Source: an uncultured virus (IMG/VR IMGVR_UViG_3300037294_000661) (lineage: Duplodnaviria; Heunggongvirae; Uroviricota; Caudoviricetes). Taken from it: a stretch of 20,000 bases of DNA. The first letter of the stretch is position 1. Each line of letters opens with the position of its first letter. The position numbers and the translations under genes were made by a program. Below the pieces are notes generated by a model. It was not told the origin of the DNA. It searched no databases and was given only the letters and a program-made list of their open reading frames with translations. This document shows positions 784 to 17,328 of the stretch, piece after piece. The DNA lies in IMG/VR virus record IMGVR_UViG_3300037294_000661; one strand, 5' to 3'.

Positions 784-814
784 GCTTGGCTTCCATCTGG
801 AACAGCGCGTTCAT
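784..814 (+). promoter_or_regulatory. Repeated promoter/operator motif, copy 1
   Basis: GCTTGGCTT-ccatctg-GAACAGCGCGTTCAT; 34 nt before the ATG at 849. Confidence 0.7.
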
Positions 815-848
815 ACGTTCGTCATCCACTTTTTCAAAGGACACGGAA

Positions 849-1055
849 ATGAGCCAGATCGAAACCATCCTCACCCTGATCGCACAGAAGCACCTCGGCA
901 TGGAGACCCTGGAAACGCGCAAGTCGGACAGCCTCGACTTCCACGACACAGCGGTCTGGTGCATCCGCGACGCCCTCGAAGCCGCATTCAAAGCGGGTGC
1001 CGAATTCGGCGCATCGTTGCCAAAAGCCACGGAGTCAGAGATTGCCAACAGCTGA
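849..1055 (+). CDS. Small phage protein, DUF6900-like (68 aa)
   Basis: MSQIETILTLIAQKHLGMETLETRKSDSLDFHDTAVWCIRDALEAAF; ETLETR-x-SDSLDFHD is a recurrent motif of phage/ICE small proteins. AAAGGA/GGAA purine stretch upstream of the ATG. Confidence 0.75.
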   Translation: MSQIETILTLIAQKHLGMETLETRKSDSLDFHDTAVWCIRDALEAAFKAGAEFGASLPKATESEIANS

Positions 1056-1066
1056 TCGAAAGGCAT

Positions 1067-1115
1067 TGAAGCCAAGCACGAAATGCTTGGCTTCAGTCCC
1101 GAACAGCGCGTTCAT
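1067..1115 (+). promoter_or_regulatory. Repeated motif copy 2 (1085-1115), overlapping a 12-bp perfect inverted repeat
   Basis: GCTTGGCTT-cagtccc-GAACAGCGCGTTCAT, 34 nt before the ATG at 1150. Hairpin TGAAGCCAAGCA-cgaaa-TGCTTGGCTTCA at 1067-1095. Confidence 0.7.
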
Positions 1116-1149
1116 CACATCGCCATCAACCAATACGAAGGAGTACCAA

Positions 1150-1665
1150 ATGACCACCACCCAACTCACCGCCAGCCAGCACGCAGTCCTTGCCCACGCC
1201 ATTCATCACGGCGACGGAAAACTCGACTGGTTCCCGGACAACATCAAAGGCGGCGCACGGAAGAAAGTCCTCGACGGACTGTTCAACCGCGCCCTCATCA
1301 CCACCAACGGCAGCGACTGGTTCGTTGCCGCCGAGGGCTACGACGCCCTTGGTTGCGCACGTCCAGCGCCAGCGCCCTTGGCCTCAGACCCCGAGATCGA
1401 GGCCGCCGTGACGGCCGCAGAGGCCACGTGGGCGCAAGAGCGCACCGACACCAAACCCCGCACCCGCGAGAACAGTAAGCAGGCCACCGTGATCCAGATG
1501 CTGCGGCGTTCCGAGGGCGCAACGGTGCGTCAGATCTGCGAGACCACCGGCTGGCAAGCGCACACCGTGCGCGGCACTTTCGCCGGAGCCTTCAAGAAGA
1601 AACTTGGGCTCGCCATCCTCTCGGACAAGACCGACGGCGGCGAGCGGGTGTACCGGATCGCGTGA
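1150..1665 (+). CDS. DUF3489-domain protein (C-terminal winged-HTH-like)
   Basis: RBS GAAGGAG before the ATG at 1150. C-terminal SKQATVIQMLRRSEGATVRQICETTGWQAHTVRGTFAG...RVYRI is the DUF3489 signature. Confidence 0.85.
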   Translation: MTTTQLTASQHAVLAHAIHHGDGKLDWFPDNIKGGARKKVLDGLFNRALITTNGSDWFVAAEGYDALGCARPAPAPLASDPEIEAAVTAAEATWAQERTDTKPRTRENSKQATVIQMLRRSEGATVRQICETTGWQAHTVRGTFAGAFKKKLGLAILSDKTDGGERVYRIA

Positions 1666-1695
1666 TCCAGAAAGATTGAAAATGAGGCCATGATC

Positions 1696-1726
1696 GCTTG
1701 GCTTCTCAATCGAACAGCGCGTTACT
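1696..1726 (+). promoter_or_regulatory. Repeated motif copy 3
   Basis: GCTTGGCTT-ctcaatc-GAACAGCGCGTTACT; 36 nt before the ATG at 1763. Confidence 0.65.
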
Positions 1727-1762
1727 ACGGGTGTCGCAACGATCAACCCCAAGGAGCCAACG

Positions 1763-2131
1763 ATGAACACCACCAACCAAATCCCCGCCACCCAGAACCA
1801 AGACTGGGGCTTTTGGGGCTCGATGAACGAGAACGCCAGCGCAGCGTGGCCACTGGCGATGACCGCGATCTCGGACGCCACCTGCCAGCCACTCGAATCG
1901 GTCAGACTTTTCCTCGACAGCCGCCACGGACGTCACTTTGCGGATGGCGTCCGCAACCAACTGCACGCAGGCCAGGCACTGGACGACGCGATCCACGCGG
2001 CAACAACGCAGTGGATGACTTGGAAGATCAACCGCCATACCGCCAAGGACTATGGCATCCCACGCGGCTTGCCCTACCTAACGGGCTTTGTGATTCACTG
2101 CGAGATCACCGACGAATCGCTAGCTGCCTGA
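1763..2131 (+). CDS. Phage hypothetical protein (122 aa)
   Basis: RBS AAGGAG; protein-like motifs T-x-N-x-x-WGFWG-x-M and FLDSRHGRHFAD. Its 3' end overlaps the convergent methylase by 37 bp. Confidence 0.8.
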   Translation: MNTTNQIPATQNQDWGFWGSMNENASAAWPLAMTAISDATCQPLESVRLFLDSRHGRHFADGVRNQLHAGQALDDAIHAATTQWMTWKINRHTAKDYGIPRGLPYLTGFVIHCEITDESLAA

Positions 2132-3366
2132 GCATCGAATGCCACGCCATCCGACTCGCGGGTGGCTTGCTTGCCCGTCCAGTCCTGCCAGCGGCGCACG
2201 ATCACATCGACGTACTTGGGGTCGAGTTCGATCAAGCGCGCCAACCGTCCTGATTTCTCAGCGGCGATCAACGTCGTGCCGGAGCCCCCGAAGGGGTCAA
2301 GCACCACGTTGCCCGGGCGACTCGAATTGCGAATGGCTCGCTCCACCAGTTCCACCGGCTTCATTGTTGGGTGCAGATCGTTTTTGTGCGGCTTCTTGAT
2401 CTGCCAGACGTCGCTCTGGTCGCGATCCCCGCACCAATGGCGCGTCGCGCCTTCGGGCCATCCGTAGAGGATCGGCTCGTACTGTCGCTGGTAGTCGGAT
2501 CGGCCCAGAGTGAAAGTGTTCTTGGCCCAGATCACGAAGGTCGACCACTTGCCACCTGCCTCGCGGAAGGCTGACTGCAGCACATCCAGTTCACTGGAGG
2601 ACATCGCCACGTAGATACCACCCCGGCAGTTGGCGATGGTCGGCGTTAACGCCGCCAGCAGGAAATCGTAGAAGCCATCCCCGAGGTTGTCGTTCAGGAT
2701 CGCGCGGTTGGTGCCGCGCATCTTGTCTTTGGCCGTGTTGGCGTAGTTCACGTTGTACGGCGGGTCGGTGAACACCATGTCCACCTGTGCGCCCTGGAGT
2801 AGTTGCTCGAAGCACTCTGCTTTTGTCGAGTCGCCGCACAGCAGGCGGTGGCCACCCAGCACCCAGACATCGCCCGGACGGGAGATTGGCGTCTCGGTAA
2901 TCTCGGGCACGGCATCGTCGTCAGTCTCACCGTCACCGTTGCCATCCTCATCGGCCAGCAAATCTGCCAACGCATCCGCGTCGAAGCCGGTCAGCGACAC
3001 ATCGAAGTCGTCGTCCTGCAGCGTCACCAATTCGATGCGCAGCATCGCCTCGTCCCAGCCCGCGTTCTCGGCGATCCGGTTATCAGCTATCACCAGCGCA
3101 CGCCGCTGGGTGGGGCTCAGGTGTTCCAGCACCACGACCGGCACCAGTGTCAGTCCAAGCTTGTGGGCGGCGGCCAGTCGTCCGTGACCAGCGACGATCA
3201 CGCCATCGGCCCCGGCCAGAATCGGGTTGGTGAAACCAAATTCGGCAATCGAGGCAGCAATCTGCGCGACCTGTTCATCCGAGTGTGTCCGCGCATTGCG
3301 GGCGTAGGGCAGCAGTTTGGCGGTCGGCCACTGCTCGATTTTGTCGGCAAGCCAGGACGCGCTCAT
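2095..3366 (-). CDS. ParB-N-terminal-domain fused beta-class DNA amino-methyltransferase (DPPY, probably m6A)
   Basis: ParB-like N-terminus (PYARNARTH...IVAGHGRL), acidic linker, catalytic TDPPY, HPTMKP, SAM-binding LDPFGGSGTT. The ATG at 3366 overlaps the upstream stop (ATGA). Confidence 0.92.
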   Translation of the reverse strand: MSASWLADKIEQWPTAKLLPYARNARTHSDEQVAQIAASIAEFGFTNPILAGADGVIVAGHGRLAAAHKLGLTLVPVVVLEHLSPTQRRALVIADNRIAENAGWDEAMLRIELVTLQDDDFDVSLTGFDADALADLLADEDGNGDGETDDDAVPEITETPISRPGDVWVLGGHRLLCGDSTKAECFEQLLQGAQVDMVFTDPPYNVNYANTAKDKMRGTNRAILNDNLGDGFYDFLLAALTPTIANCRGGIYVAMSSSELDVLQSAFREAGGKWSTFVIWAKNTFTLGRSDYQRQYEPILYGWPEGATRHWCGDRDQSDVWQIKKPHKNDLHPTMKPVELVERAIRNSSRPGNVVLDPFGGSGTTLIAAEKSGRLARLIELDPKYVDVIVRRWQDWTGKQATRESDGVAFDAQAASDSSVISQ

Positions 3367-4778
3367 GGCGACACCGCCGCGCCTGCCAGTCGTTCGGCGG
3401 CCACGACCTCGAAGGTCTGGCCCGTGCTTTCTCCAACGCCCAGCAGCGTCACCGGCACATCCGGGAAATTCTGCCGGAAGCGCTTGATCGCAACGTCCAC
3501 GTATTCGGGAGCAATCTCGACCACGCGGCACCGGCGACCCGTGCGCTCGGCGGCCAGCATCGTCGTACCACTACCGCCGAACGGCTCGAACACAATGTCG
3601 CCGCTGTCCGAGTAGGCGTCGAGAATGAACTCCGGCAGCGCCACCGGGAATACGGCGGGGTGGTCGATGTCCTGACCAATCTTGCCTTTGTGCCGCATCA
3701 CCCGGATCACCGAGTCGGGAATCCGCTTGTCCTGCGTGGGCTGGCCTGCGTGCGTCCAGCCGCCAACCTCGCCATCCTTGCCGCGCATCGCTGTCGACGA
3801 GCCATCAGCGCGCAGATGCGAATCCTGTCCCGCGTGCTTGCAGGGCACGATCTTGTTGGGCTTGCGGTTTTGCCGGTTGAAGTGAAAAACGAATTCAAAG
3901 CTCGGGGCCAGCCGCCCCTGCCAGTCGCCGGGCATCCCCGGCCCTTGATCCCAGACGTACCACGCGAAGCGCCGCCAACCCTGTGTGCGCATCCAGCCGA
4001 GCCAGCCGTCCCAATACGGGATGAATTCGTTGTCGCGATGGATCAGTCCGAGGTTAACCAGCACCTGCGCGTCCTCGGCCATCGGCACGTTGCCGAACAC
4101 GCCGCGCATCAGGCCATCCCAATCGGTAATGCCACCGCTGGCGTAGTCACGCTGGTTGCCGTAGGGCGGCGAGGTGAAGCAGAGCTTGGCTTGCTCGCCC
4201 CGCATCAGACTGGCGATCACGGACGGGTCGGCGGCGTCGCCGCAAATCAGGCGGTGCTGACCCAGTACCCACACATCACCAGTGCGAGACACCGGAGTCG
4301 TCGGAGTGTCGGGTACGTCGTCGGCAGTATCTGGCTCGTCGGCGTCCTGCTCCTGGTCGCCATCACCATCACCGAGCTCATCGGCCAGCAGTGCTTCGAT
4401 CTCGGCATCCTCGAAACCGGTGAGTGCGAGGTCGAACCCGGCTTCTGACAACTCAGCCAACTCCAGCGCCAACATCGCGTCATCCCATCCGGCATCCAGC
4501 GCGAGGCGGTTGTCGGAGATCACGTAGGCACGCTTTTGCGTCGGCGACAGATGCGCCAGTTCAATCACCGGCACCTCGGACAGGCCCAGCTTGTGCGCGG
4601 CGGCGAGCCGACCGTGGCCTGCGATGATGCCGTTGTCGCCATCCACCAGCACCGGATTTGTCCAACCGTACTCGACGATGCTGGCGGCGATCTTGGCCAC
4701 CTGTTCGTCGTTGTGCGTTCTTGGATTCCGGGCGTAGGGGATCAGCGCCTCGACCTTGCGGTACTCGACGTTGAGCAT
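3363..4778 (-). CDS. ParB-N-terminal-domain fused beta-class DNA amino-methyltransferase (SPPY, probably m4C)
   Basis: ParB-like N-terminus (PYARNPRTH...IIAGHGRL), catalytic FTSPPY, HPAVFP, FEPFGGSGTT. Confidence 0.92.
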   Translation of the reverse strand: MLNVEYRKVEALIPYARNPRTHNDEQVAKIAASIVEYGWTNPVLVDGDNGIIAGHGRLAAAHKLGLSEVPVIELAHLSPTQKRAYVISDNRLALDAGWDDAMLALELAELSEAGFDLALTGFEDAEIEALLADELGDGDGDQEQDADEPDTADDVPDTPTTPVSRTGDVWVLGQHRLICGDAADPSVIASLMRGEQAKLCFTSPPYGNQRDYASGGITDWDGLMRGVFGNVPMAEDAQVLVNLGLIHRDNEFIPYWDGWLGWMRTQGWRRFAWYVWDQGPGMPGDWQGRLAPSFEFVFHFNRQNRKPNKIVPCKHAGQDSHLRADGSSTAMRGKDGEVGGWTHAGQPTQDKRIPDSVIRVMRHKGKIGQDIDHPAVFPVALPEFILDAYSDSGDIVFEPFGGSGTTMLAAERTGRRCRVVEIAPEYVDVAIKRFRQNFPDVPVTLLGVGESTGQTFEVVAAERLAGAAVSP

Positions 4779-4795
4779 ATTCAGTTCGTGTCTCT

Positions 4796-4845
4796 CAAAA
4801 AGAAGCGGCCCGGACGGGTAAGGAGGGAACCCCGTCGCGGGCCGC
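4796..4845 (-). terminator. Intrinsic-terminator-like hairpin just upstream of methyltransferase 1
   Basis: Minus strand GCGGCCCG-c-GACGGG...CCCGTC-CGGGCCGC followed by TTCTTTTT. Confidence 0.55.
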
Positions 4846-4869
4846 GAGCGTCGCTGCTGCGTTGAAATG

Positions 4870-4905
4870 AAAAAACCCGCCGACGTTCAGACCGTGGGCG
4901 GGTTT
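4870..4905 (-). terminator. Intrinsic-terminator-like hairpin
   Basis: Minus strand AAACCCGCC-cacggtctgaacgtc-GGCGGG followed by TTTTTT. Confidence 0.6.
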
Positions 4906-4932
4906 CGTAATGCGTGCTGGATGGTGGCGGGG

Positions 4933-5029
4933 TGCAAACTGCAAACCCTGCAAACCTCGGTTTGCAGTCGGACGCTAGCGCAATGCCGCGCTGTCGCCTC
5001 CCGCATACGATTTTGGGAAAGAAGGACCC
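4933..5029 (-). other. Putative lambda-like cos site (cosQ-like 5023-5029, cosN-like 4991-5002, cosB-like TGCAAAC repeats 4933-4967)
   Basis: Minus strand GGGTCCT (the lambda cosQ heptamer), then 20 nt, then GGGAGGCGACAGCGCGGCATTGCGCTA. This is 21/27 identical to the lambda left end GGGCGGCGACCTCGCGGGTTTTCGCTA (recalled from memory). Orientation matches the GpA terminase. Confidence 0.7.
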
Positions 5030-5083
5030 CTTTTGCCTTGGGTCACTTCCTATATCGTCACCGCTGTCCAGAAGATAGCCGAA

Positions 5084-5169
5084 ATACTACCCCCAAACCG
5101 CTCGTTTTGTTGCATGGCCAAACCGCGTCAAAAGGGACAAACAGGGCAAAGCGAGGACAAACGCGGCAA
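5084..5169 (-). promoter_or_regulatory. Putative activator-dependent late promoter with phased direct repeats
   Basis: GGACAAAC-NN-GGCAA occurs twice (5135-5149, 5155-5169; 20-bp period). Minus-strand -10-like TAGTAT at 5089-5084, with no consensus -35. Confidence 0.4.
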
Positions 5170-5172
5170 GCA

Positions 5173-5589
5173 TTACCCGACGTTGCTCACGATTTTGGAA
5201 GGCGAACACCTGCCTTCGGCGTTGAGATTGGTCGCAACGATCTCCAGCGCTTTCTGCCAGCGTCGCCACGCCGTGGTGCGGTCGCAGGCAAAGCGGATCG
5301 TGATGTCACGCCAGCCGTAACGCTTGGCCCGCATCCACACGAGGTGACGTTGCTCGACCTCAAGCCACTGCACCCAGCGCATCGTCTCCAGCATCCGTTC
5401 GATGTCGACGGGGCTGGGTGGGAACGGGCGGTAAACCTTTTCGTCAGCCGCGAACGACTCCCACTCCTTGCGAACAAATGCAGGCCAGCAGTTGAAGTAG
5501 CCCTGCACACGCACAGGGGGCAGGCGACGTCCGGTGGTGGCAGCGTCCTCAAAGCGTGCGGCCACGTCGTCGATAGTCCACTCAGCCAT
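5173..5589 (-). CDS. DUF6362-like protein with sigma-region-4-like C-terminal HTH; putative late-gene regulator
   Basis: MAEWTIDDVAARFEDAA...WLEVEQRHLVWMRA...WRDITIRFACDRTTAWRRWQKAL. It is the last early gene before cos, the position held by Q/RinA-type regulators. Confidence 0.7.
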   Translation of the reverse strand: MAEWTIDDVAARFEDAATTGRRLPPVRVQGYFNCWPAFVRKEWESFAADEKVYRPFPPSPVDIERMLETMRWVQWLEVEQRHLVWMRAKRYGWRDITIRFACDRTTAWRRWQKALEIVATNLNAEGRCSPSKIVSNVG

Positions 5590-5785
5590 GATGAGACCCT
5601 CCGTACAGGCGTTCACCAATGCGGCGCACGATCTCGCGCTCGATGAAGTCCAGTCGCTCGTCGGACTCGTTGATCACCAGGATGTGCTGGTCACGCCAGC
5701 CGTTGCGTTTCATCGCATCCAGATCCGTGGTGTTGGGCTGCAGCCGACCCAAGGGGCAGCGGTATTGAGGTGTTGGAACCTTCAT
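5582..5785 (-). CDS. Small phage hypothetical protein (67 aa)
   Basis: MKVPTPQYRCPLGRLQP...IGERLYG; RBS GGAGGTG at the end of the upstream gene; coupled with its neighbours. Confidence 0.7.
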   Translation of the reverse strand: MKVPTPQYRCPLGRLQPNTTDLDAMKRNGWRDQHILVINESDERLDFIEREIVRRIGERLYGGSHHG

Positions 5786-5786
5786 C

Positions 5787-6263
5787 TCACACCTCCTGCG
5801 TTTCGATGGCCCAGTGCAGCAGTGCCAGGGCATCGGCTTCGTTGTCGTCGCACGGTGTGTGCCCACGCAACTGGACGGAGGCGATCATCTCGTCCTTGCC
5901 TGCATTGCCTTTGCCGGTGGCGTGCTTCTTGATCGTGCCGACCGGCACGCCTTGGTAGGGGATGTTGTGATGTTCACACCAAGCGGTCAGATGGCCCATG
6001 AAACCGCCATAGGCGTGGGCAGCATCGACGCCCGCGTGTCGTCGAACCTCCTCGAAATAGACCGCGTTGATGTGGCCGCTGGTGGTCAGCAGTTCGGCCA
6101 GCCAGCGCTTGAATCGCAGGAAGCGCATTCCGCCGCCTTCAAAGCGCTGCGGCTTGAAATGCTCGGTGCCACTGGTGATCGTGCTGTCCAGTTGGTGCAG
6201 TGCCCAGCCGGTGTGCGAACCCAGATCAAGGGCAAGAATGGTGCTGTTGGTTGTCGTGTTCAT
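5787..6263 (-). CDS. Phage RuvC-like Holliday junction resolvase
   Basis: ILALDLG-x-x-TGWA, VYFEEV, KKHATGKGNAGK and DDNEADALAL match the RNase H/RuvC catalytic pattern. RBS CAGGAG is at a suitable distance from the ATG at 6263. Confidence 0.8.
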   Translation of the reverse strand: MNTTTNSTILALDLGSHTGWALHQLDSTITSGTEHFKPQRFEGGGMRFLRFKRWLAELLTTSGHINAVYFEEVRRHAGVDAAHAYGGFMGHLTAWCEHHNIPYQGVPVGTIKKHATGKGNAGKDEMIASVQLRGHTPCDDNEADALALLHWAIETQEV

Positions 6264-6288
6264 CGTCATTGCTCCTGAAGTTTTGGGG

Positions 6289-6392
6289 CGAGTGACGGAT
6301 GTGACGGGTTTGCCGGATATTTCTCTTTGCCTGCGTACGTGCGCGCACACGTGTAGAGAGTTATACGGAGAATCCGTCGCATCCGTCACTCG
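6289..6392. repeat. 104-bp imperfect palindrome with GTGACGG-type iterons; putative replication origin
   Basis: 31-bp arms (6289-6319 and 6362-6392) match at 26/31 and flank a 24-nt alternating purine-pyrimidine core (6332-6355). Directly downstream of the primase-helicase. Confidence 0.65.
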
Positions 6393-6405
6393 ACAGTTTT
6401 GCTGG

Positions 6406-8694
6406 TCAGTCATCGCGGTACGGATAGCTGGAGTTGTAGGGCTTGGGTCTGAGGGACAGCCCCGTTAAACCGCGCACGCCACCGGTCAGTCGGCATTTCT
6501 CAAACTTGCGGGTCGCCATCAGTTCGGAGAAACGTTTCACCGATCCGACGAACTCGCCCGCGCGTTCGGCCCACTCGCGCCAGTCAGAAAACAGATCGGA
6601 CACGCCTTCGCGGCTGGTCTTGGCCAGCAGGCAGCGCTCCTCGATCCATTGCCCGAGCGCGTCCTCGGCCTCGAAATACTCCTCGGTCGCCGACACCACG
6701 CTGGCTGGCGGTTTCAGCCCTTGCTGTTGCCAGCGGCTGCATCCCTCGACCGCCCACGCCAAAATGCCATCGCGCTCCTTGAGCAGCTTGTCGGTGAGCC
6801 TGCCGTCCCGCTTTTCGGGCGGAATGGTGACCGTGAACGGAATCAGGTGCAGACGACGCTTCATCGCCTCGTCCACGTTGCGGATCGATGGCTTGTGGTT
6901 GCCCGCGATCACCAACTTGAACTGGGGCACGTACTCGAAGAAGTCCTGGCGCATGAAGCGCGCCGACACCTTGTCGCCGCCAGTGATCGCCTTGACCTTG
7001 GACTCGTTCCAGCGCCGACCCTGTTCGGTTTCGATGGAGGACACGAAGCGTGCGCCGCGCAGTCCGGCCAGATCGGTCGGGTGCCGGTCGTTGCGCGCGT
7101 CCATGAACGTGTCCATCGGCGCGTTGGCCGCGTAGTCACCGAGGATCGTGGTGATGACGTTGACGAACACGGACTTGCCGTTCGCGCCTGTGCCGTACAG
7201 GAAAAACAGCGCGTGCTCGCTGGTAATACCGGTCAGGCAATAGCCCACCATCAGTTGCAGGTAAGCGATCAGGTCGGCATCGCCACCGGTGACATCGGCC
7301 AGAAACCCATGCCACGTTGGACAGTCGCCCTTGGGGGTGGCCGTGCTGACCTTGGTCATGCGGTCGTCACGCCGGTGCTCGCGCATCCGGCCTGTGCGGA
7401 GATCGACCACGCCACCCGGGGTGTTGAGCGCCCACGTATCGGCATCCCATTCCTCTGCACTGGACGCGTGCTTTGGATCGGATCGGGCAATTTTCTCGAC
7501 CGCCGAAATGGTCGACGAGCTGGCGAGTTTGGCCTTCTGCCTTGGACTGTCTGCCTTGAGCGATGCGTTACGGCAGATGCCACGGGCCAGATGCGAGACG
7601 TAAAGCATCTGATCGGCATTCCAGCGCACGCCCGTCCACACCAGCCACTTGCCCCACAGCGCGCAGTAGCGCCAGTCCTGACCATAGCGACGGGTGAAGG
7701 CGGTCGACAGTCCGTCCTCGGTACTCCAGTCGATGCCCGTCAGCAAATCCGGCGGCGCAATATCCTCAACGGAGCGCATTACGGGCAATCGCTTACCAAC
7801 AGCAAGAAAGCCAGCCACGTCAAAACCATCAGGAATGGCGTCGGCAGCGTCCCAACCCTCGGGCTTGTCATCGGGTGGTACGAGGATGGCGACCGTGGTC
7901 GCACCGGCGTGCAAGATCGCCTGCGAAGCGCGGTCGGCGTAGTCCCAGCCCGGCGCATCCCGATCCGGCCAGATCAGCACCGACTTGCCTGCCAGCGGTT
8001 GCCAGTCCGTTTTATCGACCGGAGCGTTTGCACCATGCATTGCGGTGGTCGCCACCACACCGGCATCGATCAGCGCCTGCGCGCATTTCTCGCCTTCGAC
8101 CAGAACGATGTGGCTGGCAGCAAGCAAACCCGGCTGGTTGTACAGCGGGCGTGGCTCGGGCGGTGCCATCTTGCGGCGCTTGGCATCCCAAGGCCGGAAT
8201 TCCTTCTTCCGCCCCGGAGGATCGTACCGATAGACGACTGCGATCAGTTTGCCGGTGGCATCAAAATAGTCCCACTTGGCGGTCGCGGGGCCGAGATCGT
8301 CGGACGGCGGTGCTACCTTAGCTTTGCGCGCCGGTGTTGACCGCGCACGCCCAAGCAGATCACTGGCTTGCTGCAGCACCCTAGGAAAGTCGGCATGGAT
8401 GCTGGCTCCGAGGTAGGCCGCGATCAAATCGAAGATGTCGCCACCGTCGCCGTTCGCGCGATCCGTCCAGAGTCCGGCCTTGTCGCCGGTCAGCACCACC
8501 TCGAGGCTGTCGCCGGGACTGCCCAGCACATCGCCGATGAGAAACTTGCCCTGACGCTTTTTACCCGCTGGGAACATCGAGGTCAGTACCGACTCCAGTC
8601 GTGCGATCAGTTCCGCGCGAATCTCGTCGCGCTCGGTGTTAAGCCCGGCGTCCCGGTTTTCGATGGGCAGGGAGATGTCGTTGAAGTCGATCAT
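6406..8694 (-). CDS. Phage/plasmid primase-helicase, P4 family (Toprim + D5_N + SF3 helicase)
   Basis: Toprim motifs (LVEGEKCA, IWPDRDAPG, GWDAAD), LNTPGGVVDLRTG, Walker A YGTGANGKS, KAITGGD-x-VSARFM, GNHKP. Confidence 0.93.
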   Translation of the reverse strand: MIDFNDISLPIENRDAGLNTERDEIRAELIARLESVLTSMFPAGKKRQGKFLIGDVLGSPGDSLEVVLTGDKAGLWTDRANGDGGDIFDLIAAYLGASIHADFPRVLQQASDLLGRARSTPARKAKVAPPSDDLGPATAKWDYFDATGKLIAVVYRYDPPGRKKEFRPWDAKRRKMAPPEPRPLYNQPGLLAASHIVLVEGEKCAQALIDAGVVATTAMHGANAPVDKTDWQPLAGKSVLIWPDRDAPGWDYADRASQAILHAGATTVAILVPPDDKPEGWDAADAIPDGFDVAGFLAVGKRLPVMRSVEDIAPPDLLTGIDWSTEDGLSTAFTRRYGQDWRYCALWGKWLVWTGVRWNADQMLYVSHLARGICRNASLKADSPRQKAKLASSSTISAVEKIARSDPKHASSAEEWDADTWALNTPGGVVDLRTGRMREHRRDDRMTKVSTATPKGDCPTWHGFLADVTGGDADLIAYLQLMVGYCLTGITSEHALFFLYGTGANGKSVFVNVITTILGDYAANAPMDTFMDARNDRHPTDLAGLRGARFVSSIETEQGRRWNESKVKAITGGDKVSARFMRQDFFEYVPQFKLVIAGNHKPSIRNVDEAMKRRLHLIPFTVTIPPEKRDGRLTDKLLKERDGILAWAVEGCSRWQQQGLKPPASVVSATEEYFEAEDALGQWIEERCLLAKTSREGVSDLFSDWREWAERAGEFVGSVKRFSELMATRKFEKCRLTGGVRGLTGLSLRPKPYNSSYPYRDD

Positions 8695-9685: not shown

Positions 9686-10158
9686 GGCTTGGTCTCCCAA
9701 GGCAGGTCGTCCTCAAGATCGGCGAACGGATTCGCCAGCGGATCGGGCGTGGAAGGCATGCCGCGCACCGGCGGAAACTTGGTCACCTCGTGGTGCTCGA
9801 CCATCGCCTCGGTGTAGCGGGTGACGATGGCGTCGATAACCCGCAGCGCTTCGGCTTCCGAGTAATCCCCGAGGGGCTTCGTGAAGCCAATTTCGCCAGC
9901 GGCTTCACCAAACGCCTTCAGGCACTTTTTCATCGAGGCGATCTCGATGTCAGAGGGATCGATCATCACGACCTCCTTGCGCTTGCCCGGCTCTTCCTTG
10001 GCTTTGAGCCAGTTGCCGTACATCGTGTGAAATACGTTCTGGCATCGTTGCGAGCAGAACACCCAGTCGATGGGGTAGCGCCGGGGATTGCCAACACCGT
10101 GTTGGTTGTCGGTGTGGCCGAATCCCCGCGCCTGACGTTTGCAGACCCAGCATTTCAC
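9682..10158 (-). CDS. DUF6511-like protein with N-terminal Zn-finger-like Cys motifs and an acidic C-terminal tail
   Basis: GTG start coupled to the upstream stop; CWVC...FCSQRC; ends PFADLEDDLPWETKP. Confidence 0.7.
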   Translation of the reverse strand: MKCWVCKRQARGFGHTDNQHGVGNPRRYPIDWVFCSQRCQNVFHTMYGNWLKAKEEPGKRKEVVMIDPSDIEIASMKKCLKAFGEAAGEIGFTKPLGDYSEAEALRVIDAIVTRYTEAMVEHHEVTKFPPVRGMPSTPDPLANPFADLEDDLPWETKP

Positions 10159-11009: not shown

Positions 11010-11020
11010 GGCAATCCTCC

Positions 11021-11659
11021 TCACTGCGCCCATGACGGTTTGCCCGTCACGGATGCGCGTTGCGGAGCAGCAGCGGGAGCCTGATAGACCGGTGCTGCCT
11101 GAGCTGGAGCGCCGGAAGTGCCACCGCCCGGGTTTGCCTTGGGCGGCAAGCCCTTCAACTTGGCGTAGTCGGCGTGGTCAGGCTCGACCGCCACCTTGAC
11201 CACATTGCGATCCGCGCCCTTGGCGTCCTTTTCGATATCAACGCGAACGATGAATTCGATACCGTCCAGTTCGTGAAAGCCCTGGATGCGGCGGGCAGCG
11301 GCGGCCTGCGGTGTGTTGTCCTGCGGGTGGATATTGCGGGCACTGTTGAGCGTAGCGCGGATAAAGCTGCGCCCCATCTGACCCCACGTCGGCCCCTTCT
11401 TGGACTGCAGGCCAATGTTGCTCCACATCTTGCGTTTGGCATGCTCACCGTCGGTGACCACAAACTCGGCAGAGAGGTAAATCGACCCGGTGTCGAAGGA
11501 TTCGGTGGCGTAGCCGCCACCCCAACCCTGTTCTGGATCGTCGTAGCCACCGGGCTTGATGGTCATGCGCACCGGCACCACGGTGCCCTTGGGGATTAGG
11601 TCGAAGCCGGACTGCTGTGAGTCGGCGTCATTAAAGTCATTCCATGCGTTGGCAGTCAT
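11021..11659 (-). CDS. Putative phage ssDNA-binding protein (DUF669-like)
   Basis: Follows the Sak4-like ATPase; beta-rich core (FDLIPKGT, EFVV-x-x-G-x-HAKRK), Pro/Ala-rich linker and C-terminal KPSWAQ; RBS AAGGAG. Confidence 0.6.
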   Translation of the reverse strand: MTANAWNDFNDADSQQSGFDLIPKGTVVPVRMTIKPGGYDDPEQGWGGGYATESFDTGSIYLSAEFVVTDGEHAKRKMWSNIGLQSKKGPTWGQMGRSFIRATLNSARNIHPQDNTPQAAAARRIQGFHELDGIEFIVRVDIEKDAKGADRNVVKVAVEPDHADYAKLKGLPPKANPGGGTSGAPAQAAPVYQAPAAAPQRASVTGKPSWAQ

Positions 11660-11664
11660 TGCGA

Positions 11665-12510
11665 TTACTCCTTGGATTCTGTTTGGATGGGGGTGGCGGC
11701 GATGGCCGTCGGAGAGCCACTGGCGCACTTGGCGATCAGCGCGCCGAGATGCGGCGGCTCCAGCACGTCGAGACGACCGCTGCGGTCTTTGGCGGGGAAG
11801 CCGTAGGGATTGACGGTGTGGGTGACGAAGGCGCGATACGAGCTGCCGTCATCGGCCTTGAGCTCGGCCAGCGTCACGACCTCATCGACGATTCCGGGCA
11901 GCTCGAGGCTGGTTTTACTGCCCTCGATCTGGGGCACGAACACCTTGCGATTGAAGTCATCCAAGCGCTCGTCGAGGATGGCCACGAAGATCACGTTCTT
12001 GCCCCGGGCGTGCTGCAGATGGGTCAAGGCCCCGATCATTTCTTGGCCGAGCAACCCGTAGGCCGCACGAAGATCAGGCTTGCCGGAGCGGTCACTGACG
12101 GCACCCGGCTGTGACTTGCACCACGCAAAGCACTGCCGCGACAACTGCGTGATCGAGTCCAGGAAGAAGGTCTGGTAACGATCCAGTTGCGTGGCATCGC
12201 CAAACTTTTCGATGACGTGGTCGTAGTGCGCTTGCGAGAACGCGCTCTCGGCGGGCAGCGATTTGTCGGGGCCAGCGAGGAACACGAAGAAGTCACGACT
12301 CTCCGGCCAAGATGCTGGACGGATGGTGTCGCCCGGCCAGTCCGCCACCGAAAGATCGCCAGCCTCAATGTCGAGGAACAGCGTGGTGGCGGGGTCGAGG
12401 TCTTTGAGGCGGGTGGTTTTACCGATGCCAGACTTGCCCAGCAGCAAGAGCTTGACGCCCTTGCGCTCGGCCATGCGTTCGACGGCGGACACGATGGGGA
12501 GCTTTTTCAT
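11665..12510 (-). CDS. Sak4-like (AAA_24) phage recombination ATPase
   Basis: Walker A GKSGIGKT, LFLDIEAG, Walker B FFLDSIT, C-terminal AKDRSGRL. Confidence 0.82.
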   Translation of the reverse strand: MKKLPIVSAVERMAERKGVKLLLLGKSGIGKTTRLKDLDPATTLFLDIEAGDLSVADWPGDTIRPASWPESRDFFVFLAGPDKSLPAESAFSQAHYDHVIEKFGDATQLDRYQTFFLDSITQLSRQCFAWCKSQPGAVSDRSGKPDLRAAYGLLGQEMIGALTHLQHARGKNVIFVAILDERLDDFNRKVFVPQIEGSKTSLELPGIVDEVVTLAELKADDGSSYRAFVTHTVNPYGFPAKDRSGRLDVLEPPHLGALIAKCASGSPTAIAATPIQTESKE

Positions 12511-12989
12511 GGTGCATCCCCCTCGATGGTCAGCGTGAACGAGGGCTTGCCGGGTTCGACCGTTCGGGCGGCGGCGAACTGCTGCTGCAGTGCCGGTGGC
12601 CAGTTGGTGTAACGCGACTCGGATACGGCCAGCTTGACGTCGATGTAGCCTTCGACCTTCTCGCCGGAGGACACAATGCGTTCGGCAATCTCGGCCAACT
12701 GCTTCTGGTTCCAGCTGACCTTCTTGGGCATCTCGAACTTGATGTGCAGCGGGCCGTCGCTGATGTGGGCGGTGCCAAAATCGCGGCCGGAGTCGTGCAG
12801 TGCTGTGCGGCCCTGTCCGCCGAAGCGTTGATCCAATGCAGCATCAAGTTTGGTGCGCGTTTTCTTGGCCCAATCGATCAGGTGATCAAGGTTGGCGTCA
12901 GCCTCAGCCAGCTGGGCAGGCGGCAGGTTGGCCAGTTGGCTCACCGACATTTCGGCGAGGTCAGCGGGGAATACGGTCAGATCGCTCAT
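12507..12989 (-). CDS. Phage hypothetical protein of the recombination module
   Basis: 160-aa ORF, ATGA-coupled to the ATPase, with a plausible RBS (AAGGGGG). Confidence 0.75.
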   Translation of the reverse strand: MSDLTVFPADLAEMSVSQLANLPPAQLAEADANLDHLIDWAKKTRTKLDAALDQRFGGQGRTALHDSGRDFGTAHISDGPLHIKFEMPKKVSWNQKQLAEIAERIVSSGEKVEGYIDVKLAVSESRYTNWPPALQQQFAAARTVEPGKPSFTLTIEGDAP

Positions 12990-12999
12990 GGCCGCCCCC

Positions 13000-13263
13000 T
13001 TACTGGTATGCCCGAGCGAAGGTCGAGTAGCGCGAAACGCGCCGCTCGAAGGCTTCGACTTCGGAGATCAGGTAAGTGACACGGGCTCCCAGCTTGCAAA
13101 AGACTGGGCCCAAGGAATCTTGCCGCCAGCGGCGAAGAGTTTTGACGGAGAGCCCCCAGCGGGTAGCGAGCTCGTTTTCATCGATGGCGATGCGCGTGGC
13201 ACCGTCTCGAATGTTCCGGCGGTGTGGCCGACCGGATTCAACTGATGGGACTTGGTTTTGCAT
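13000..13263 (-). CDS. AlpA/excisionase-like HTH DNA-binding protein
   Basis: IDENELATRWGLSVKTLRRWR...GPVFCKLGARVTYLISEVEAFE; RBS AAGGAGG. Confidence 0.85.
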   Translation of the reverse strand: MQNQVPSVESGRPHRRNIRDGATRIAIDENELATRWGLSVKTLRRWRQDSLGPVFCKLGARVTYLISEVEAFERRVSRYSTFARAYQ

Positions 13264-13355
13264 TTCGATGTGCCTCCTTTATGAAATGGGCACATCGAAG
13301 TTTCCGCATGGATTTATGGGCGGTGTCTGGTTCCGTTTATGGTCAGATTTATGGG
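13264..13355 (-). promoter_or_regulatory. Regulatory leader of the AlpA-like gene: RBS-overlapping hairpin and TTTATG repeats
   Basis: Perfect 11-bp inverted repeat TTCGATGTGCC/GGCACATCGAA (13264-13274, 13289-13299). TTTATG(G) at 13278, 13313, 13336 and 13348. Confidence 0.55.
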
Positions 13356-14281
13356 TTGCGTCGCACTCGGTAACGCGCACGTCGCGCTTTTTCAATCACA
13401 TCTTCTCGGGCCTGTTGGCCACCGAAAGCGTCGTCGAACGACTGATAGCCGGTGTTGGCCAGCCCGTTAACCTCCGCCCACGACATTTCTGGTGGTGCCT
13501 TTCCTACGTCGCCCCACATCACTTTGATGATCTTTGCGCGTTCGGGAGCGAGCTCGCGCGACGAGACGAAATGTGGCAATTTCAAACGGTCGCCCTGAAG
13601 GAATTGCTCGGGCTCGGGGATGCCGTTGATCGTCAAGAACCCACGCAAAACCCGGTCGAAGGCGCTCGCGTCGAAAACGTCCTGCCCGTTTTCCACGCGA
13701 ATGAAATCGTTCAGGCTGCGTATGACATGGTCACGAGGCAGGTTGTCGCTGCTCGGTCGATGCCGCAGGAGCACACCACCGCGAGGCCACGCCGTGTCGC
13801 ACAGCACTGGCGTCGTTTCTGAGGCCGGTGCGCGCTCCCATAAACGCCCGACAAACACCGGCGCGAAATCATGGGTGCCAGCGATTCGCACATTACCGAG
13901 GTGCCAGAGGTGGTCTGGTACCCGAGTGCGCTGTTGCGATAGCTGTCGTGGCTCTATGCCGATCAGACTGCACAGATCGGTGAGCCACGTATCAATGCGC
14001 AGCGCGTAAAGCACGATGTCAGAGAGCGGGCGCGTGACGATTCGAGATCGCTGTTGGGGGCTCCGGTATCGGAACACGCCAGCGTCCTCGTCAATATCGG
14101 CCTCGACCTCTTCCTCCGAATCGAGGAAAGGCACCATCACGCGGGTCAGGTAGCCATCCTCAACCACCCACCGACGGCGAACAAATTCGGCTCGGTGGTG
14201 GCCGACGGTGGTGGAAATCACGCGCGGCTCGACGCTGCGCAAGCGCTCAATGGTGTTGAAATATTCCAAATACGCAGACAT
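13349..14281 (-). CDS. Hypothetical protein (310 aa), possible C-terminal winged-helix domain
   Basis: RBS GAGGAG before the ATG at 14281. The C-terminus (ERAKIIKVMW...MSWAEVN...FDDAFGG...YRV) looks wHTH-like by eye. Confidence 0.7.
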   Translation of the reverse strand: MSAYLEYFNTIERLRSVEPRVISTTVGHHRAEFVRRRWVVEDGYLTRVMVPFLDSEEEVEADIDEDAGVFRYRSPQQRSRIVTRPLSDIVLYALRIDTWLTDLCSLIGIEPRQLSQQRTRVPDHLWHLGNVRIAGTHDFAPVFVGRLWERAPASETTPVLCDTAWPRGGVLLRHRPSSDNLPRDHVIRSLNDFIRVENGQDVFDASAFDRVLRGFLTINGIPEPEQFLQGDRLKLPHFVSSRELAPERAKIIKVMWGDVGKAPPEMSWAEVNGLANTGYQSFDDAFGGQQAREDVIEKARRARYRVRRNP

Positions 14282-14291
14282 GGTGTGCTCC

Positions 14292-15728
14292 TCAGAATTC
14301 ACACAGGACGCCGAGCCGCGCCAATTGCTCGACCACGCGCTTGCGGTCATCCTCGGTCTTGCTCTTGTCATTCAGGCCGTTGGGCGACGTGATCTGGACG
14401 GCCACGTTGTGTGCTTTGCGGTGCGGTTGCTTTGCCATCCGGAAAACCAGCTTCACCTGCGACAAGGCATAGCCAGTCAGATCATCCAATCCGTAGTCGT
14501 CATAGGCGACTTGGTAGATGTGGCGGCTATCGCGCCGATCCCGACCAATCATCAGCGTGCTCGACAGGTGCTGGACAATGTCGCGCCCGTTGGCTTCGTC
14601 GATGGTGTTCTGCTCGAATGGGCGCGCGATCTTCACTTGCAAGATCGAGATCTTCTCCACGCCGTCGACGAGATGCTGTTCAAGGCGCTTGAGCATGGCG
14701 TGTGTGGAAAATCCCAGAAGATCGAACTCACGCATGGGCATGTCGTTGATCGCCCCCTCGCAGGCCAGTACGACATCACGGAAGATGGTGGCTAGGTCAC
14801 GGCGCGATTCCCTGTCCTCGCAGAACACGCCAAGCGCACCCGTGCCGGGTTCCCACGAGAAGATGGCCGACATGGCGGCGGGCTCTTCGTGGTCAATCAC
14901 TTCACCGTCGGCGACTTGTTTGAAATGTGCCGTCGAGCCATTGAAGGTTGCGGTGAGCGTATGCAACAGCACTGGCGTCGAATCGTCTGCGTCCTCCCCG
15001 CAGCAGCGATCCGCATGAGCGAGGTCGCGCCGCGTGAATTGCTCGATCAGAATCTGGTCGGCGGCCACCTTCGGATAGAGGGCTGCGATCCGGGTGCGCA
15101 GCAAATCCTGCACGTCGACGTCGACCTTGGGCTCGATGCCTTTTGGCCCGAGGTAATGGCTGGAAAAGTTTTCGCTCTTCCACTGCCGATGCATCACTTG
15201 CAGGCGCTCGGCGTGCTCAAAGCGGTGTTCGGCCTTGACGCCGTCCGATGGAAATTCCTGGAGAAGATGCAGGTGCAGCGCGCGGCTGTACCTGTCGGTT
15301 GGCACAACGAGTACCGCCGCGTCGCCATCATTCTTTTCCTCGAGCAAGGACTGGACGGCCTGCGCGCCGTACTCATCGTCCAGCAGTACCACCAGTTCAG
15401 CCGCACGCTCGATGCGCTGCTGTTTATCGGGCATGAGTTTGGCCACGACGTGAAACAGCGCCTTGCGCGCTGAAATCGGCAGCACCCCCTTTGCGACTTC
15501 GACCAGCGCCGCAATTTCAGGCAGCGTGGTGTCGGCGGCGCGCTCGACCAAATTCAAGATGAGTGCCGGTCGTTTCACCTTGCGGGCCAGGGTGACGAAA
15601 TGCTCCATGCAGGGGAGGACATCGGGGCCATCGTCCGATTGCCGGTTGCGCGCTTTCTTTGATGTCTGCTGATCTGCAGCCGACTCTTTTTGTTTTGCGA
15701 TGTTGTTTTGTTCGACTGCCGTCATCAT
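14292..15728 (-). CDS. Hypothetical protein (478 aa)
   Basis: Long ORF with RBS AAAGGA; no catalytic motif recognised. Confidence 0.75.
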   Translation of the reverse strand: MMTAVEQNNIAKQKESAADQQTSKKARNRQSDDGPDVLPCMEHFVTLARKVKRPALILNLVERAADTTLPEIAALVEVAKGVLPISARKALFHVVAKLMPDKQQRIERAAELVVLLDDEYGAQAVQSLLEEKNDGDAAVLVVPTDRYSRALHLHLLQEFPSDGVKAEHRFEHAERLQVMHRQWKSENFSSHYLGPKGIEPKVDVDVQDLLRTRIAALYPKVAADQILIEQFTRRDLAHADRCCGEDADDSTPVLLHTLTATFNGSTAHFKQVADGEVIDHEEPAAMSAIFSWEPGTGALGVFCEDRESRRDLATIFRDVVLACEGAINDMPMREFDLLGFSTHAMLKRLEQHLVDGVEKISILQVKIARPFEQNTIDEANGRDIVQHLSSTLMIGRDRRDSRHIYQVAYDDYGLDDLTGYALSQVKLVFRMAKQPHRKAHNVAVQITSPNGLNDKSKTEDDRKRVVEQLARLGVLCEF

Positions 15729-15757
15729 GAAATTCCTTTACTGAATGAAGTGCGCGA

Positions 15758-15775
15758 TTGCGCGAACGGTTAATT
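15758..15775. promoter_or_regulatory. Putative repressor operator, copy B
   Basis: TTGCGcGAacgGTTAATT; 14/18 identical to 16953-16970. Confidence 0.5.
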
Positions 15776-15784
15776 GCTGGTTTC

Positions 15785-15808
15785 AAAAAATGCCGACACG
15801 AAGTCGGC
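15785..15808 (-). terminator. Intrinsic terminator after the ImmA-like gene
   Basis: Minus strand GCCGAC-ttcgt-GTCGGC-ATTTTTT, about 20 nt after the stop codon. Confidence 0.65.
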
Positions 15809-15827
15809 GGCTAGGTGAGAGCAAGGA

Positions 15828-16661
15828 TCAAGCGATACCTGCTCCCGGTGTCAGAAGGCCGTAGCGTTCCATCCGAACCTGGATGAATCGCCGGTGAACG
15901 CCGAAGCGTTTTGCCAAGGCCTTCTGCAGACACTCCATGTCGAAGAAGCCAATGTCACCATCGGCGGTCAGCCGCATCGTGGTGCCGGGCAACTCCGGAT
16001 CGAGAGATGGACTACGGTGGATCGTCACACCGTGCTTCGGTGCCAGTACTTCAACCGCGCGGTACAAATGCTGTCGCGGCACAAGCAATGAGCCCATGAA
16101 TTCATTAGCACGCAGCTCGGCAAAATGGATATTGCGCTCAAGCTCGCTGTTACGTACTGCGCTCGGCTCTGGCTGTTTTGCCAAGTGCTCGGCGTCACGA
16201 GTCTCGGTTCGGTAGGCCTTGCGTGCCAGCTCCGAAGGGTCGTCGAACAGGCCAGGGCCCTGAGCGGCGGCGGCAATCCAGCTCGGCGCATCAAAAATGG
16301 CGTGGCCAAGCTCGTGGGCAAAGGTACTGAGCACCAGCTCCTCGGATGCCGTGTCACTGATAGGCGAGACGGACAGCATGGTGGCATCCGGTGATGCCTC
16401 GGGATCAAACTCGCAAACACCCAGTACCGGATTTCCCTGCTCGTCGTTGACGGCGTGCTCGGTGTCGACCCACAAGTCGAACTGGATGCCATTGATTTTC
16501 AGTCTGCTGATGTCGCGCAACACCGACAGCGAGATGGCATCGGTATTGGCATCAACCAGTTGCTGGCGAGCCAGCACTGCAATGCCTTCGACTTCAGAAT
16601 GTTTGATGTAGCGAGGGAGTTTCCGGTCGCAGCACCGGTAGGCGAGAGTCAACTCCGGCAT
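15828..16661 (-). CDS. ImmA/IrrE family zinc metallopeptidase (anti-repressor)
   Basis: HEXXH motif (STFAHELGHAIF), downstream E-x-x-AN-x-F-x-x-x-LLVP, C-terminal HTH-like LAKRFGVHRRFIQVRM; adjacent to the XRE gene. Confidence 0.9.
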   Translation of the reverse strand: MPELTLAYRCCDRKLPRYIKHSEVEGIAVLARQQLVDANTDAISLSVLRDISRLKINGIQFDLWVDTEHAVNDEQGNPVLGVCEFDPEASPDATMLSVSPISDTASEELVLSTFAHELGHAIFDAPSWIAAAAQGPGLFDDPSELARKAYRTETRDAEHLAKQPEPSAVRNSELERNIHFAELRANEFMGSLLVPRQHLYRAVEVLAPKHGVTIHRSPSLDPELPGTTMRLTADGDIGFFDMECLQKALAKRFGVHRRFIQVRMERYGLLTPGAGIA

Positions 16662-16940
16662 TCATTTCTCTCCCGTCGCGCGTTTGCGATACATCCGAAC
16701 GATATCTCCCACGTCCTCTCGCATGTCCGGCGGGAGGCGACTGGCTTCGATGAAGGCCTCGTCGGGGTTCTCACCAAGAATTTCTGCGGCTTTGCGGATC
16801 AGTTCGTCCTTGGGCGGCTTTTCCATCTCGCGCTCAATGCGCGACCAGTAGGCCGGTGAGATGTCGAGTTGGCGCGCGAAGTCGTTCATCGCAATACCCT
16901 TCGCGTCCCGTTTTTGTCTGATGTAGGTTCCAAAACCCAT
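16662..16940 (-). CDS. XRE-family HTH transcriptional repressor (ImmR-like)
   Basis: FGTYIRQKRDAKGIAMNDFARQLDISPAYWSRIERE; no S24 autopeptidase domain. Confidence 0.92.
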   Translation of the reverse strand: MGFGTYIRQKRDAKGIAMNDFARQLDISPAYWSRIEREMEKPPKDELIRKAAEILGENPDEAFIEASRLPPDMREDVGDIVRMYRKRATGEK

Positions 16941-16952
16941 GATGTAACCCAG

Positions 16953-17025
16953 TTGCGTGATTAGTTAATTTACTCAATCATAAAGGCAACAACCACGACC
17001 GTCAACTGTTTTGTTAACGCGCAAT
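16953..17025 (-). promoter_or_regulatory. Sigma70 promoter of xre-immA with flanking operator-like sites
   Basis: Minus strand TTGACG (17005-17000), N17, TATGAT (16982-16977). Operator copy A, TTGCGtGAttaGTTAATT, at 16953-16970. Partial inverted copy (ATTGCGCGTTAA on the minus strand) at about 17014-17025. Confidence 0.7.
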
Positions 17026-17133
17026 CTACGAATCACTGCGACCGCAAGAAATGACCGCCATTACCCTGCGTTGCCATCCTCTTCGGAAGATCGCGCTCAA
17101 TATTCATGACAGTTGCTATTCCCCGGAGCCGTC

Positions 17134-17328
17134 ATGAACAACATCGAAATCAATCCTCCGTCAGAGATGTCGTCCAGCGCCCGCGCTGCCGAGATCACGA
17201 CAATCCTTGCGGCCGCCATCGTCCGCACCCAGCTTGTGCAGGCCGTCAAACAGAGAGATGTTGACCTTGGCTTACTGCCCGACCAGCGCGTTCATACAAC
17301 CCCTTATCAAGAAAAGAGGTTGTCATGA
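17134..17328 (+). CDS. Small hypothetical protein (64 aa) upstream of DUF2924; coding status uncertain
   Basis: GGAG RBS and ATGA coupling to DUF2924, but its 3' part contains the repeated DNA motif. Confidence 0.5.
   Translation: MNNIEINPPSEMSSSARAAEITTILAAAIVRTQLVQAVKQRDVDLGLLPDQRVHTTPYQEKRLS
17265..17295 (+). promoter_or_regulatory. Repeated motif copy 4
   Basis: CCTTGGCTT-actgccc-GACCAGCGCGTTCAT; 29 nt before the DUF2924 ATG. Confidence 0.65.

Follow-up and report, generated by a model that had tools for sequence, protein, structure and literature searches.

The window analysed here is a 20,000-nt stretch of the uncultured caudovirus record IMGVR_UViG_3300037294_000661 and spans the region of an AcaML1-like prophage that serves control, replication and packaging. 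Two sets of plus-strand genes in it are preceded by the same short motif. The first set is an island of three small genes, located between the terminase small subunit gene (terS) and two methyltransferase genes and running on the strand opposite to them. It comprises a DUF6900 gene (849..1055, 68 aa, cassette 1; PF21841, E 9e-24), a DUF3489 gene (1150..1665, 171 aa; E 6e-32), whose two predicted winged-helix domains go with a candidate role as reader of the motif, and a 122-aa gene (1763..2131, cassette 3; phrog_8020, E 2e-46), the product of which had no match in a Pfam search. The second set is an operon formed by a DUF2924 gene (17325..17774, 149 aa; E 9e-47), a gene for a large serine recombinase (17771..19159, 462 aa; Resolvase, Recombinase and Zn_ribbon_recom) and, at its end, two small genes (19159..20000, 123 and 157 aa; PHROG match, phrog_14161).

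The motif, CTTGGCTT-N7-GAMCAGCGCGTT, was found four times with 0 mismatches, always on the plus strand and with its C at 785, 1086, 1697 and 17266. The copies cover 785..814 (copy 1), 1086..1115 (copy 2), 1697..1726 (copy 3, a GTTACT variant) and 17266..17295 (copy 4, a GACC variant). A preliminary description of this DNA had placed them at 784-814, 1085-1115, 1696-1726 and 17265-17295, which is exact, and none is expected by chance (200 shuffles, mean 0.00, maximum 0). No fifth copy was detected in the window when up to 3 mismatches were allowed. The ATGs at 849, 1150, 1763 and 17325 begin 34, 34, 36 and 29 nt past the ends of the copies, precisely the distances claimed before, and each of them follows an AAGG, GGAG or GAGG run which resembles a ribosome-binding site (RBS) and is separate from the motif.

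Each copy has the outline of a promoter. A -35-like hexamer occupies motif positions 2-7 and is followed, 17 bp on, by the -10 position at 25-30; in copy 1, these are TTGGCT at 786-791 and GTTCAT at 809-814. The same geometry had been read from the window before, and its spacing turned out to be fixed across relatives. The hexamer is TTGGCT in sites of the strict form of the motif, referred to as beta-type in the following, and of the TGGACT or TTGATT type elsewhere, near TTGACA. Position 30 is T in 202/202 IMG/VR sites among the matches listed, even though it was outside the search pattern, and in 43/44 alphaproteobacterial sites. Once near-duplicates were set aside, 70 of 95 beta-type sites (69 as YRY; 26% at other offsets) and 26 of 44 alphaproteobacterial sites (22% at other offsets) had a pyrimidine-purine (YR) step at positions 36/37. 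According to passages of PMC12641261, the general bacterial start element is a YRY centred 7 bp past the -10 element and, combined with the enrichment at 36/37, this rule makes T30 position -7. The starts predicted from the YRY enrichment are 821 for copy 1 (CGT), 1122 for copy 2 (CGC) and 1733 for copy 3 (TGT).

With this numbering, G at -14 and C at -13 are near invariant and -12 is a purine; the whole stretch from -15 to -12, A/C-G-C-R, hardly varies. G-14, C-13 and T-7 are fixed across divergent lineages, while motif positions 10-15 vary freely. At -11, we counted T in 29, G in 9, A in 4 and C in 2 of the 44 alphaproteobacterial sites; T is also found in 22/22 sites from held-out loci (see below) and in 95/95 beta-type sites, where the search pattern fixed it, and A is found in 0/80 DUF2924 loci chosen by protein. 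An A at -11 is the base used by sigma-70 to nucleate DNA opening. Since -11 is mostly T and not A, the motif is not an ordinary housekeeping promoter. A sigma-70 promoter scan of the window listed none of the four copies.

Several other readings of the motif were rejected. A sigma-54 promoter (GG-N10-GC) would fit 0/272 and 4/47 sites. The dyad GAAC-N5-GTTC, pointed out in the preliminary description alongside the idea of an operator, is present in 190 of 272 beta-type sites, a figure biased by the search pattern, but all four pairs occur in only 1/47 alphaproteobacterial sites and copy 4, with GACC, breaks it; a palindromic, LexA-like operator was therefore abandoned. A hairpin is not favoured either, with a mean folding z of -0.62 over 80 sites and 7/80 below -2; the values for copies 1-4 are 0.35, -2.18, -0.81 and 0.08, and Rfam covariance models gave 0 matches in the window. 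An overlapping site on the reverse strand at 17311 (11.2 bits) is missing in AcaML1 and was taken as chance. Based on sequence and position, we conclude that the motif is very probably a promoter with its -35 at positions 2-7, its -10 at 25-30 and a start about 7 nt further on, leaving leaders of 23-30 nt.

The motif is widespread. The strict pattern was found in at least 168 IMG/VR stretches with at least 210 distinct sites, and a relaxed pattern in at least 134 GTDB stretches with at least 161 sites, the carriers among the GTDB matches listed being mainly Burkholderiales and Xanthomonadales, with Nitrospira as well. Among the IMG/VR matches listed, 191 of 210 sites are followed by an RBS-bearing open reading frame (ORF), with the gap peaking at 34-36 nt, or at 29 nt for DUF2924; in most sites, 26-38 nt separate the motif end from the start codon. 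When loci were picked by DUF2924 alone, 79/80 had the motif, corresponding to copy 4, at up to 2 mismatches. The 27 records chosen for motif or DUF2924 contain 113 sites (control 0), and five whole genomes gave 16 matches, nearly all in elements (control 0). Further, 71 of 80 GTDB loci among the matches listed have an element marker, and most others lie amid mobile cargo. The matrix scan of related elements found both motif and spacing conserved, across bacterial classes. The suggestion of a dedicated promoter class serving both the antisense island and the operon of DUF2924 and the recombinase is borne out to the extent that spacing and distance are kept in hundreds of sites.

A third class of sites lies after lysis genes, where the motif heads a conserved 96-aa family (L401:1500, L539:5169, L540:1298, L541:4420 and L542:7369) for which no Pfam or PHROG match was found. 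At L260, L290, L325, L326 and L343, copies stand outside recognisable family elements, amid ParB/RepB, toxin-antitoxin, AbiEii and HTH_17 genes; these are either remnants or a sign of use by other mobile elements. The lone site at a core gene, before phaC, was found again in 1 of 25 congeners. An opposite-strand start codon (CAT for ATG) accounts for this chance site but was rejected for the motif in general, because CAT ends only 13/47 alphaproteobacterial sites and does not end copy 3 of the window. We regard the motif as probably private to AcaML1-like prophages and related elements with DUF2924 and a serine recombinase.

In Alphaproteobacteria, a looser form was recovered with an iterated matrix for which the beta form had served as seed. 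Its consensus is CT(G/T)GACTT-N8-A..RRAGCGT..AT, or more generally CT(G/T)GAYT..AGCRT..AT, with spacing identical to that of the beta form. With leave-one-out matrices and a threshold of at least 14 bits, 45/59 loci had a site, versus 0/59 on the opposite strand and 1% of shuffles. Held-out loci were collected with the recombinase N-terminus as query, and 3 of 50 distinct loci were dropped as too short; of the remaining 47, 37 had a site at the same threshold (versus 0/47). After merging of identical sequences, 22 different 30-mers are left, each of them on the coding strand. A phage record of 40% GC has a site before DUF2924 at 18.6 bits. In 48 longer regions, sites lie before islands, before DUF2924 and, in mini-elements, before DUF3489. 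The adjacency of DUF3489 to DUF2924 and a recombinase, mentioned in the preliminary description for other elements, was indeed seen in these alphaproteobacterial mini-elements: 17 of 19 with all three genes adjacent have the motif before DUF3489, and none of the 19 had a match for terS, primase, Sak4 or DUF6362. DUF3489 occurs in 49/301 sampled genomes of the class of genome G005 (a tally that includes genome G050), and DUF2924 in 38/47 of these. Between the promoter and the RBS of alphaproteobacterial DUF3489 genes, a two-hairpin leader is often seen (L404-L420); an Rfam search of 20 alphaproteobacterial loci returned a tRNA only, and no match for this leader. Of 20 mini-element regions (L499-L518), 7 have a ParB_N-methyltransferase in their neighbourhood.

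The genes behind the sites are small and diverse. The 364 complete first genes fall into 39 clusters, and of 29 cargo representatives 26 lack a Pfam match, while the remaining three are HTH_17, DUF932 and KleA/KleC. With respect to anti-restriction or anti-SOS functions, no Ard/Psi family was found among the 29, and KleA/KleC and DUF932 appear once each. The 245 labelled island sites show 34 pairings of upstream and downstream gene, and the spacer tracks the downstream gene: CTCAATC is present in 44/60 sites before the 122-aa gene, whatever lies upstream. As each accessory gene has its own copy, promoter and gene appear to move as a cassette. In a 92%-identical relative (G007), an extra 309-bp cassette stands between two copies that share 23 nt; the junction seen in the window does not correspond to its exact removal. 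The motif copies may provide short homology for gain and loss of cassettes, presumably by recombination.

Copy 4 has a second context, overlooked in the preliminary description, which had described the copy itself correctly. A conserved 64-aa ORF (17134..17328, plus strand) contains it in its last third, close to the 3′ terminus, so that the DNA would be dual coding. The frame of this ORF is open in 65/65 relatives, versus 32 and 17 for the other two frames, and its divergence by codon position is 3 > 1 > 2. A similar ORF precedes DUF2924 in 8/11 alphaproteobacterial sites, and no Pfam or PHROG family was found for it. Third codon positions inside copy 4 are 0.88-1.0 identical, compared with 0.73 in DUF2924, which shows that the constraint acts on the DNA; conservation of copy 4 purely as protein-coding sequence is ruled out by these positions.

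The remaining genes of the window fit the prophage context. On the minus strand, terS (216..743; phrog_57, E 8e-34) and two genes for ParB_N plus N6/N4 DNA methyltransferases (2095..4778; profile matches) flank the island. DUF6362, primase and Sak4 are encoded in the window as well. An exchangeable control module (13349..16940, minus strand) encodes a 310-aa protein, a 478-aa protein, an ImmA/IrrE-like protein and an XRE protein, and the sole consensus sigma-70 promoter of the window is located before the XRE gene (16977-17005, minus strand). PADLOC gave 0 matches on 17 proteins. The nearest named phage is Acidithiobacillus phage AcaML1 (JX507079), with a DUF2924 protein 81% identical and the same gene order. 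It has four exact copies of the motif as well, of which three belong to the antisense island and the fourth precedes DUF2924, but a different control module, and its annotation in JX507079 contains no promoter or repeat feature.

A lambda-like cos signature was recognised at about 5029-4991 (minus strand), with GGGTCC and, 27 nt on, a 12-mer of which 9/12 bases equal the lambda left end; a comparable signature is present in 8/16 other loci examined. If this putative cos site is functional, the island is flanked by cos and terS and points against the late transcript, and the methyltransferases and the island would form the first 4 kb of the virion left end. A second repeat with the core ATTACCC-N2-(G/A)TTGC, kept in relatives, has two plus-strand copies, one upstream of the 64-aa ORF (17059-17089) and one just past DUF6362 (5171-5201), and is possibly a second regulatory site.

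Which protein reads the motif was approached by co-occurrence and fold. The XRE or 310-aa protein had been named as candidate regulator, but the motif does not depend on their module: 33 loci reaching HTH_17 have no match to the XRE, ImmA, 478-aa or 310-aa proteins of the window, and 32 of them keep the motif. DUF2924 is the most constant partner of the motif and a candidate reader or recombinase partner. By weak fold matches, it appears to consist of a SAP/LEM-like helical domain and a RAMA-like domain; the comparison with MPND gave Z 6.5, a root-mean-square deviation of 3.0 and 65 aligned residues, a lead only, as Z is under 8. A predicted complex of DUF2924 with the recombinase scored 0.30 (mark 0.32), which speaks neither for nor against such a pairing. 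Together with the proximity of ParB_N-methyltransferases, the RAMA-like domain hints at a link to methylation. DUF3489 is predicted to fold as two winged helices and its best fold rows are winged-helix regulators, none at E<=0.001; no Foldseek match at this threshold was obtained with either model, and atlas searches with the two proteins gave no usable match. DUF2924, the recombinase C-terminal part and adjacent small proteins remain candidates because they are present with the motif everywhere we looked; DUF3489 and the 64-aa ORF rank behind DUF2924 and the recombinase-adjacent small proteins. At positions 16-30, copies from the same element that are 16 kb apart resemble each other a little more than copies from different elements do (74/105 versus a permutation mean of 64.3, p 0.03).

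Taking these data together, we think it reasonably likely that the motif defines an element-private promoter class which moves along with gene cassettes and probably requires a factor encoded by the element. As -11 is T or G and not A while -15 to -12 is near invariant, dependence on a helper is suggested. Host RNA polymerase would dock via the -35 and the T at -7, and the promoter would fire only with a sequence-specific, element-encoded helper contacting -20 to -11. We put forward such helper-dependent firing by the host polymerase tentatively, at slightly less than an even chance. The recombinase operon and the antisense island might then be switched on together whenever the element is unrepressed, presumably upon entry or induction, much as the CII promoters of lambda are. 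PRE, PI and PaQ of lambda form such a set, switched on by one factor. A more specific version seems doubtful, namely that a small adaptor, DUF2924 or the 64-aa protein, reads -15 to -12 and opens a sigma-70-type promoter lacking the -11 A, that it works across several bacterial classes, and that it is shared by prophages and minimal elements, possibly in trans.

A number of observations weigh against this interpretation. The expected start of copy 4 (17302) reads CCC, without a YR step, and no distinct YR peak was found in the held-out recombinase-operon sites (9/22 at 37, 10/22 at 33). Since 9 of the 44 alphaproteobacterial sites have G at -11 and 4 have A, T is preferred at this position, not required. 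The alphaproteobacterial matrix depended on the beta-form seed, an unseeded Gibbs motif search gave only coding or RBS signals in 10/10 runs, and the 69 sites counted in the 48 longer regions (versus 6 in shuffles) are partly circular. In Wolbachia phage WO, DUF2924 and the recombinase have no site in front (3/3 records). Two carriers, G003 and G010, lack DUF3489 but retain the motif copy before DUF2924. Finally, the switch of gene association from upstream to downstream across the motif is modest, and the likeness of distant copies within an element is weak for the whole motif (p 0.21; 7 pairs).

Contigs from four RNA runs showed neither a transcript start nor an end. Published transcription start site supplements for Methylorubrum (1 file) and B. 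cenocepacia (12 files) did not contain the motif strings, the element carriage of these strains being unchecked, and rows with ctggacttc in B. japonicum data, again from a strain of unchecked carriage, were not motif sites.

As to how the promoter is read, we would rank an element-encoded helper of host polymerase first, a repressed entry promoter second and an alternative sigma factor third. The entry promoter would amount to an establishment regulon under zygotic induction, in which sigma-70 acts unaided on entry and DUF3489 or DUF2924 subsequently represses by binding to the conserved bases, comparable to Reg576 on plasmid p576. Passages of PMC6294495 describe several small-gene operons behind one conserved element, as seen here. 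The cargo includes a KleA/KleC homologue and DUF932 (2/29 representatives), and DUF3489, with its two predicted winged helices, heads the mini-element operon. However, entry promoters are expected to have a strong consensus, whereas the motif lacks the -11 A and went unlisted in the sigma-70 scan; anti-restriction families are absent from the 29 representatives, and DUF3489 is missing from the two carriers mentioned above. The location of the island between the cos-like site and terS also argues against it. The end between cos and terS is the last to be ejected by lambda. We thus consider zygotic induction unlikely.

An alternative sigma factor, either ECF-like and supplied by some members (in trans on others) or provided by the host, is less probable still. 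An ECF-like gene (Sigma70_r2, some with r4) is present in 8 alphaproteobacterial or other loci (L475:2756-3229, L480, L481, L483, L490-L492 and L497), in 5 of them directly behind the recombinase operon, and C-13, G-12 and T-11 resemble ECF -10 elements. Yet none was found in the window or in the AcaML1 loci, and Sigma70_r2 exceeded the cut-off in 0/27 beta-type records (an own-family profile in 0/5), which is where the motif is strictest. A host regulon was not evident, with 6 matches in 26 Mb of which 4 lie in elements, although this is a weak test as the exact pattern missed true sites; the phaC site recurring in 1 of 25 congeners speaks against it as well.

It is very unlikely that the motif is a weak, unregulated sigma-70 promoter of the moron type, with copies kept alike by recombination and gene conversion. 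Copies do head the post-lysis gene, a moron-like position, copies of the beta type hardly differ from each other, and the ends of cassette indels coincide with copies; but conversion would homogenise the spacer, in which positions 10-15 vary freely, and G-14, C-13 and T-7 are fixed even across divergent lineages and single-copy mini-elements. A function other than promoter, i.e., a serine recombinase binding or recombination site or a translation signal like SAS/ESAS, is scarcely credible, for although the site is invariably associated with the recombinase module and marks cassette joints, the strict orientation, the 26-38 nt to starts, the -35/17/-7T geometry and the YR at +1 would be left without reason, no conserved inverted repeat was found, and a separate RBS follows each copy.

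The element-private promoter class favoured here has partial parallels in known systems. PeSLs of T4-type phages are repeated promoters upstream of small genes and are associated with cassette exchange, as stated in passages of PMC2839356 (Arbiol et al. 2010) and PMC4122927 (Comeau et al. 2014). Both lie directly upstream of small uncharacterised genes in a variable region. PeSL cassettes are exchanged by recombination between copies, with mini-circles; the motif copies may act as exchange points too, given one 309-bp indel bounded by copies and 34 adjacency types. PeSLs, however, are consensus sigma-70 promoters with a terminator stem-loop, whereas our motif lacks the -11 A and a conserved hairpin, resides in temperate elements and also heads a recombinase operon. 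Plasmid establishment regulons such as Reg576 of p576 and CUP/ArdK/ArdR of pKM101 (passages of PMC6294495) likewise place one conserved upstream element before several small-gene units, and a KleA/KleC-like and a DUF932 gene are found once each in the cargo here. They differ in belonging to conjugative plasmids, in their repressed promoters and in their Ard anti-restriction cargo; CUP exceeds 400 bp, while the motif has 30 bp and a non-consensus -10.

Lambda CII and PafBC resemble the proposed system in that non-consensus promoters are used by the housekeeping polymerase with a dedicated factor, and lambda int is linked to a promoter facing late genes much as the recombinase here shares its motif with promoters that point towards the packaging operon. 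The CII protein recognises a direct repeat on either side of the -35, and PafBC replaces the -35 contact. Here, in contrast, the -35 is near consensus, the deviation is at -11, and there is no direct repeat. Finally, SAS/ESAS of Cluster K mycobacteriophages are asymmetric repeats before many small phage genes (passages of PMC3203893), unrelated to each other as in our case, and their function too was deduced from position. SAS, however, is located where translation starts, and ESAS has additional inverted repeats of 17 bp, whereas the motif lies 26-38 nt upstream of the start, with a separate RBS.

Literature searches with the motif strings, and with combined terms for motif and families, returned no paper, within a coverage that lacks most subscription literature and the original AcaML1 papers. 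The passages searched contain no promoter analysis of AcaML1, and PMC12286644 does not mention DUF2924. The DUF3489/DUF2924 element family is large and barely studied, and few papers name either DUF. The motif offers a handle on this family, as it predicts where transcription starts, narrows the reader down to a few candidates and has AcaML1 as an inducible model; dozens of small, uncharacterised accessory gene families can be located by its sites as well. Should a helper be required, the system would provide an orthogonal switch with a broad host range, in which promoters without -11 A are opened in a new manner, and it would show when large serine recombinases are expressed.

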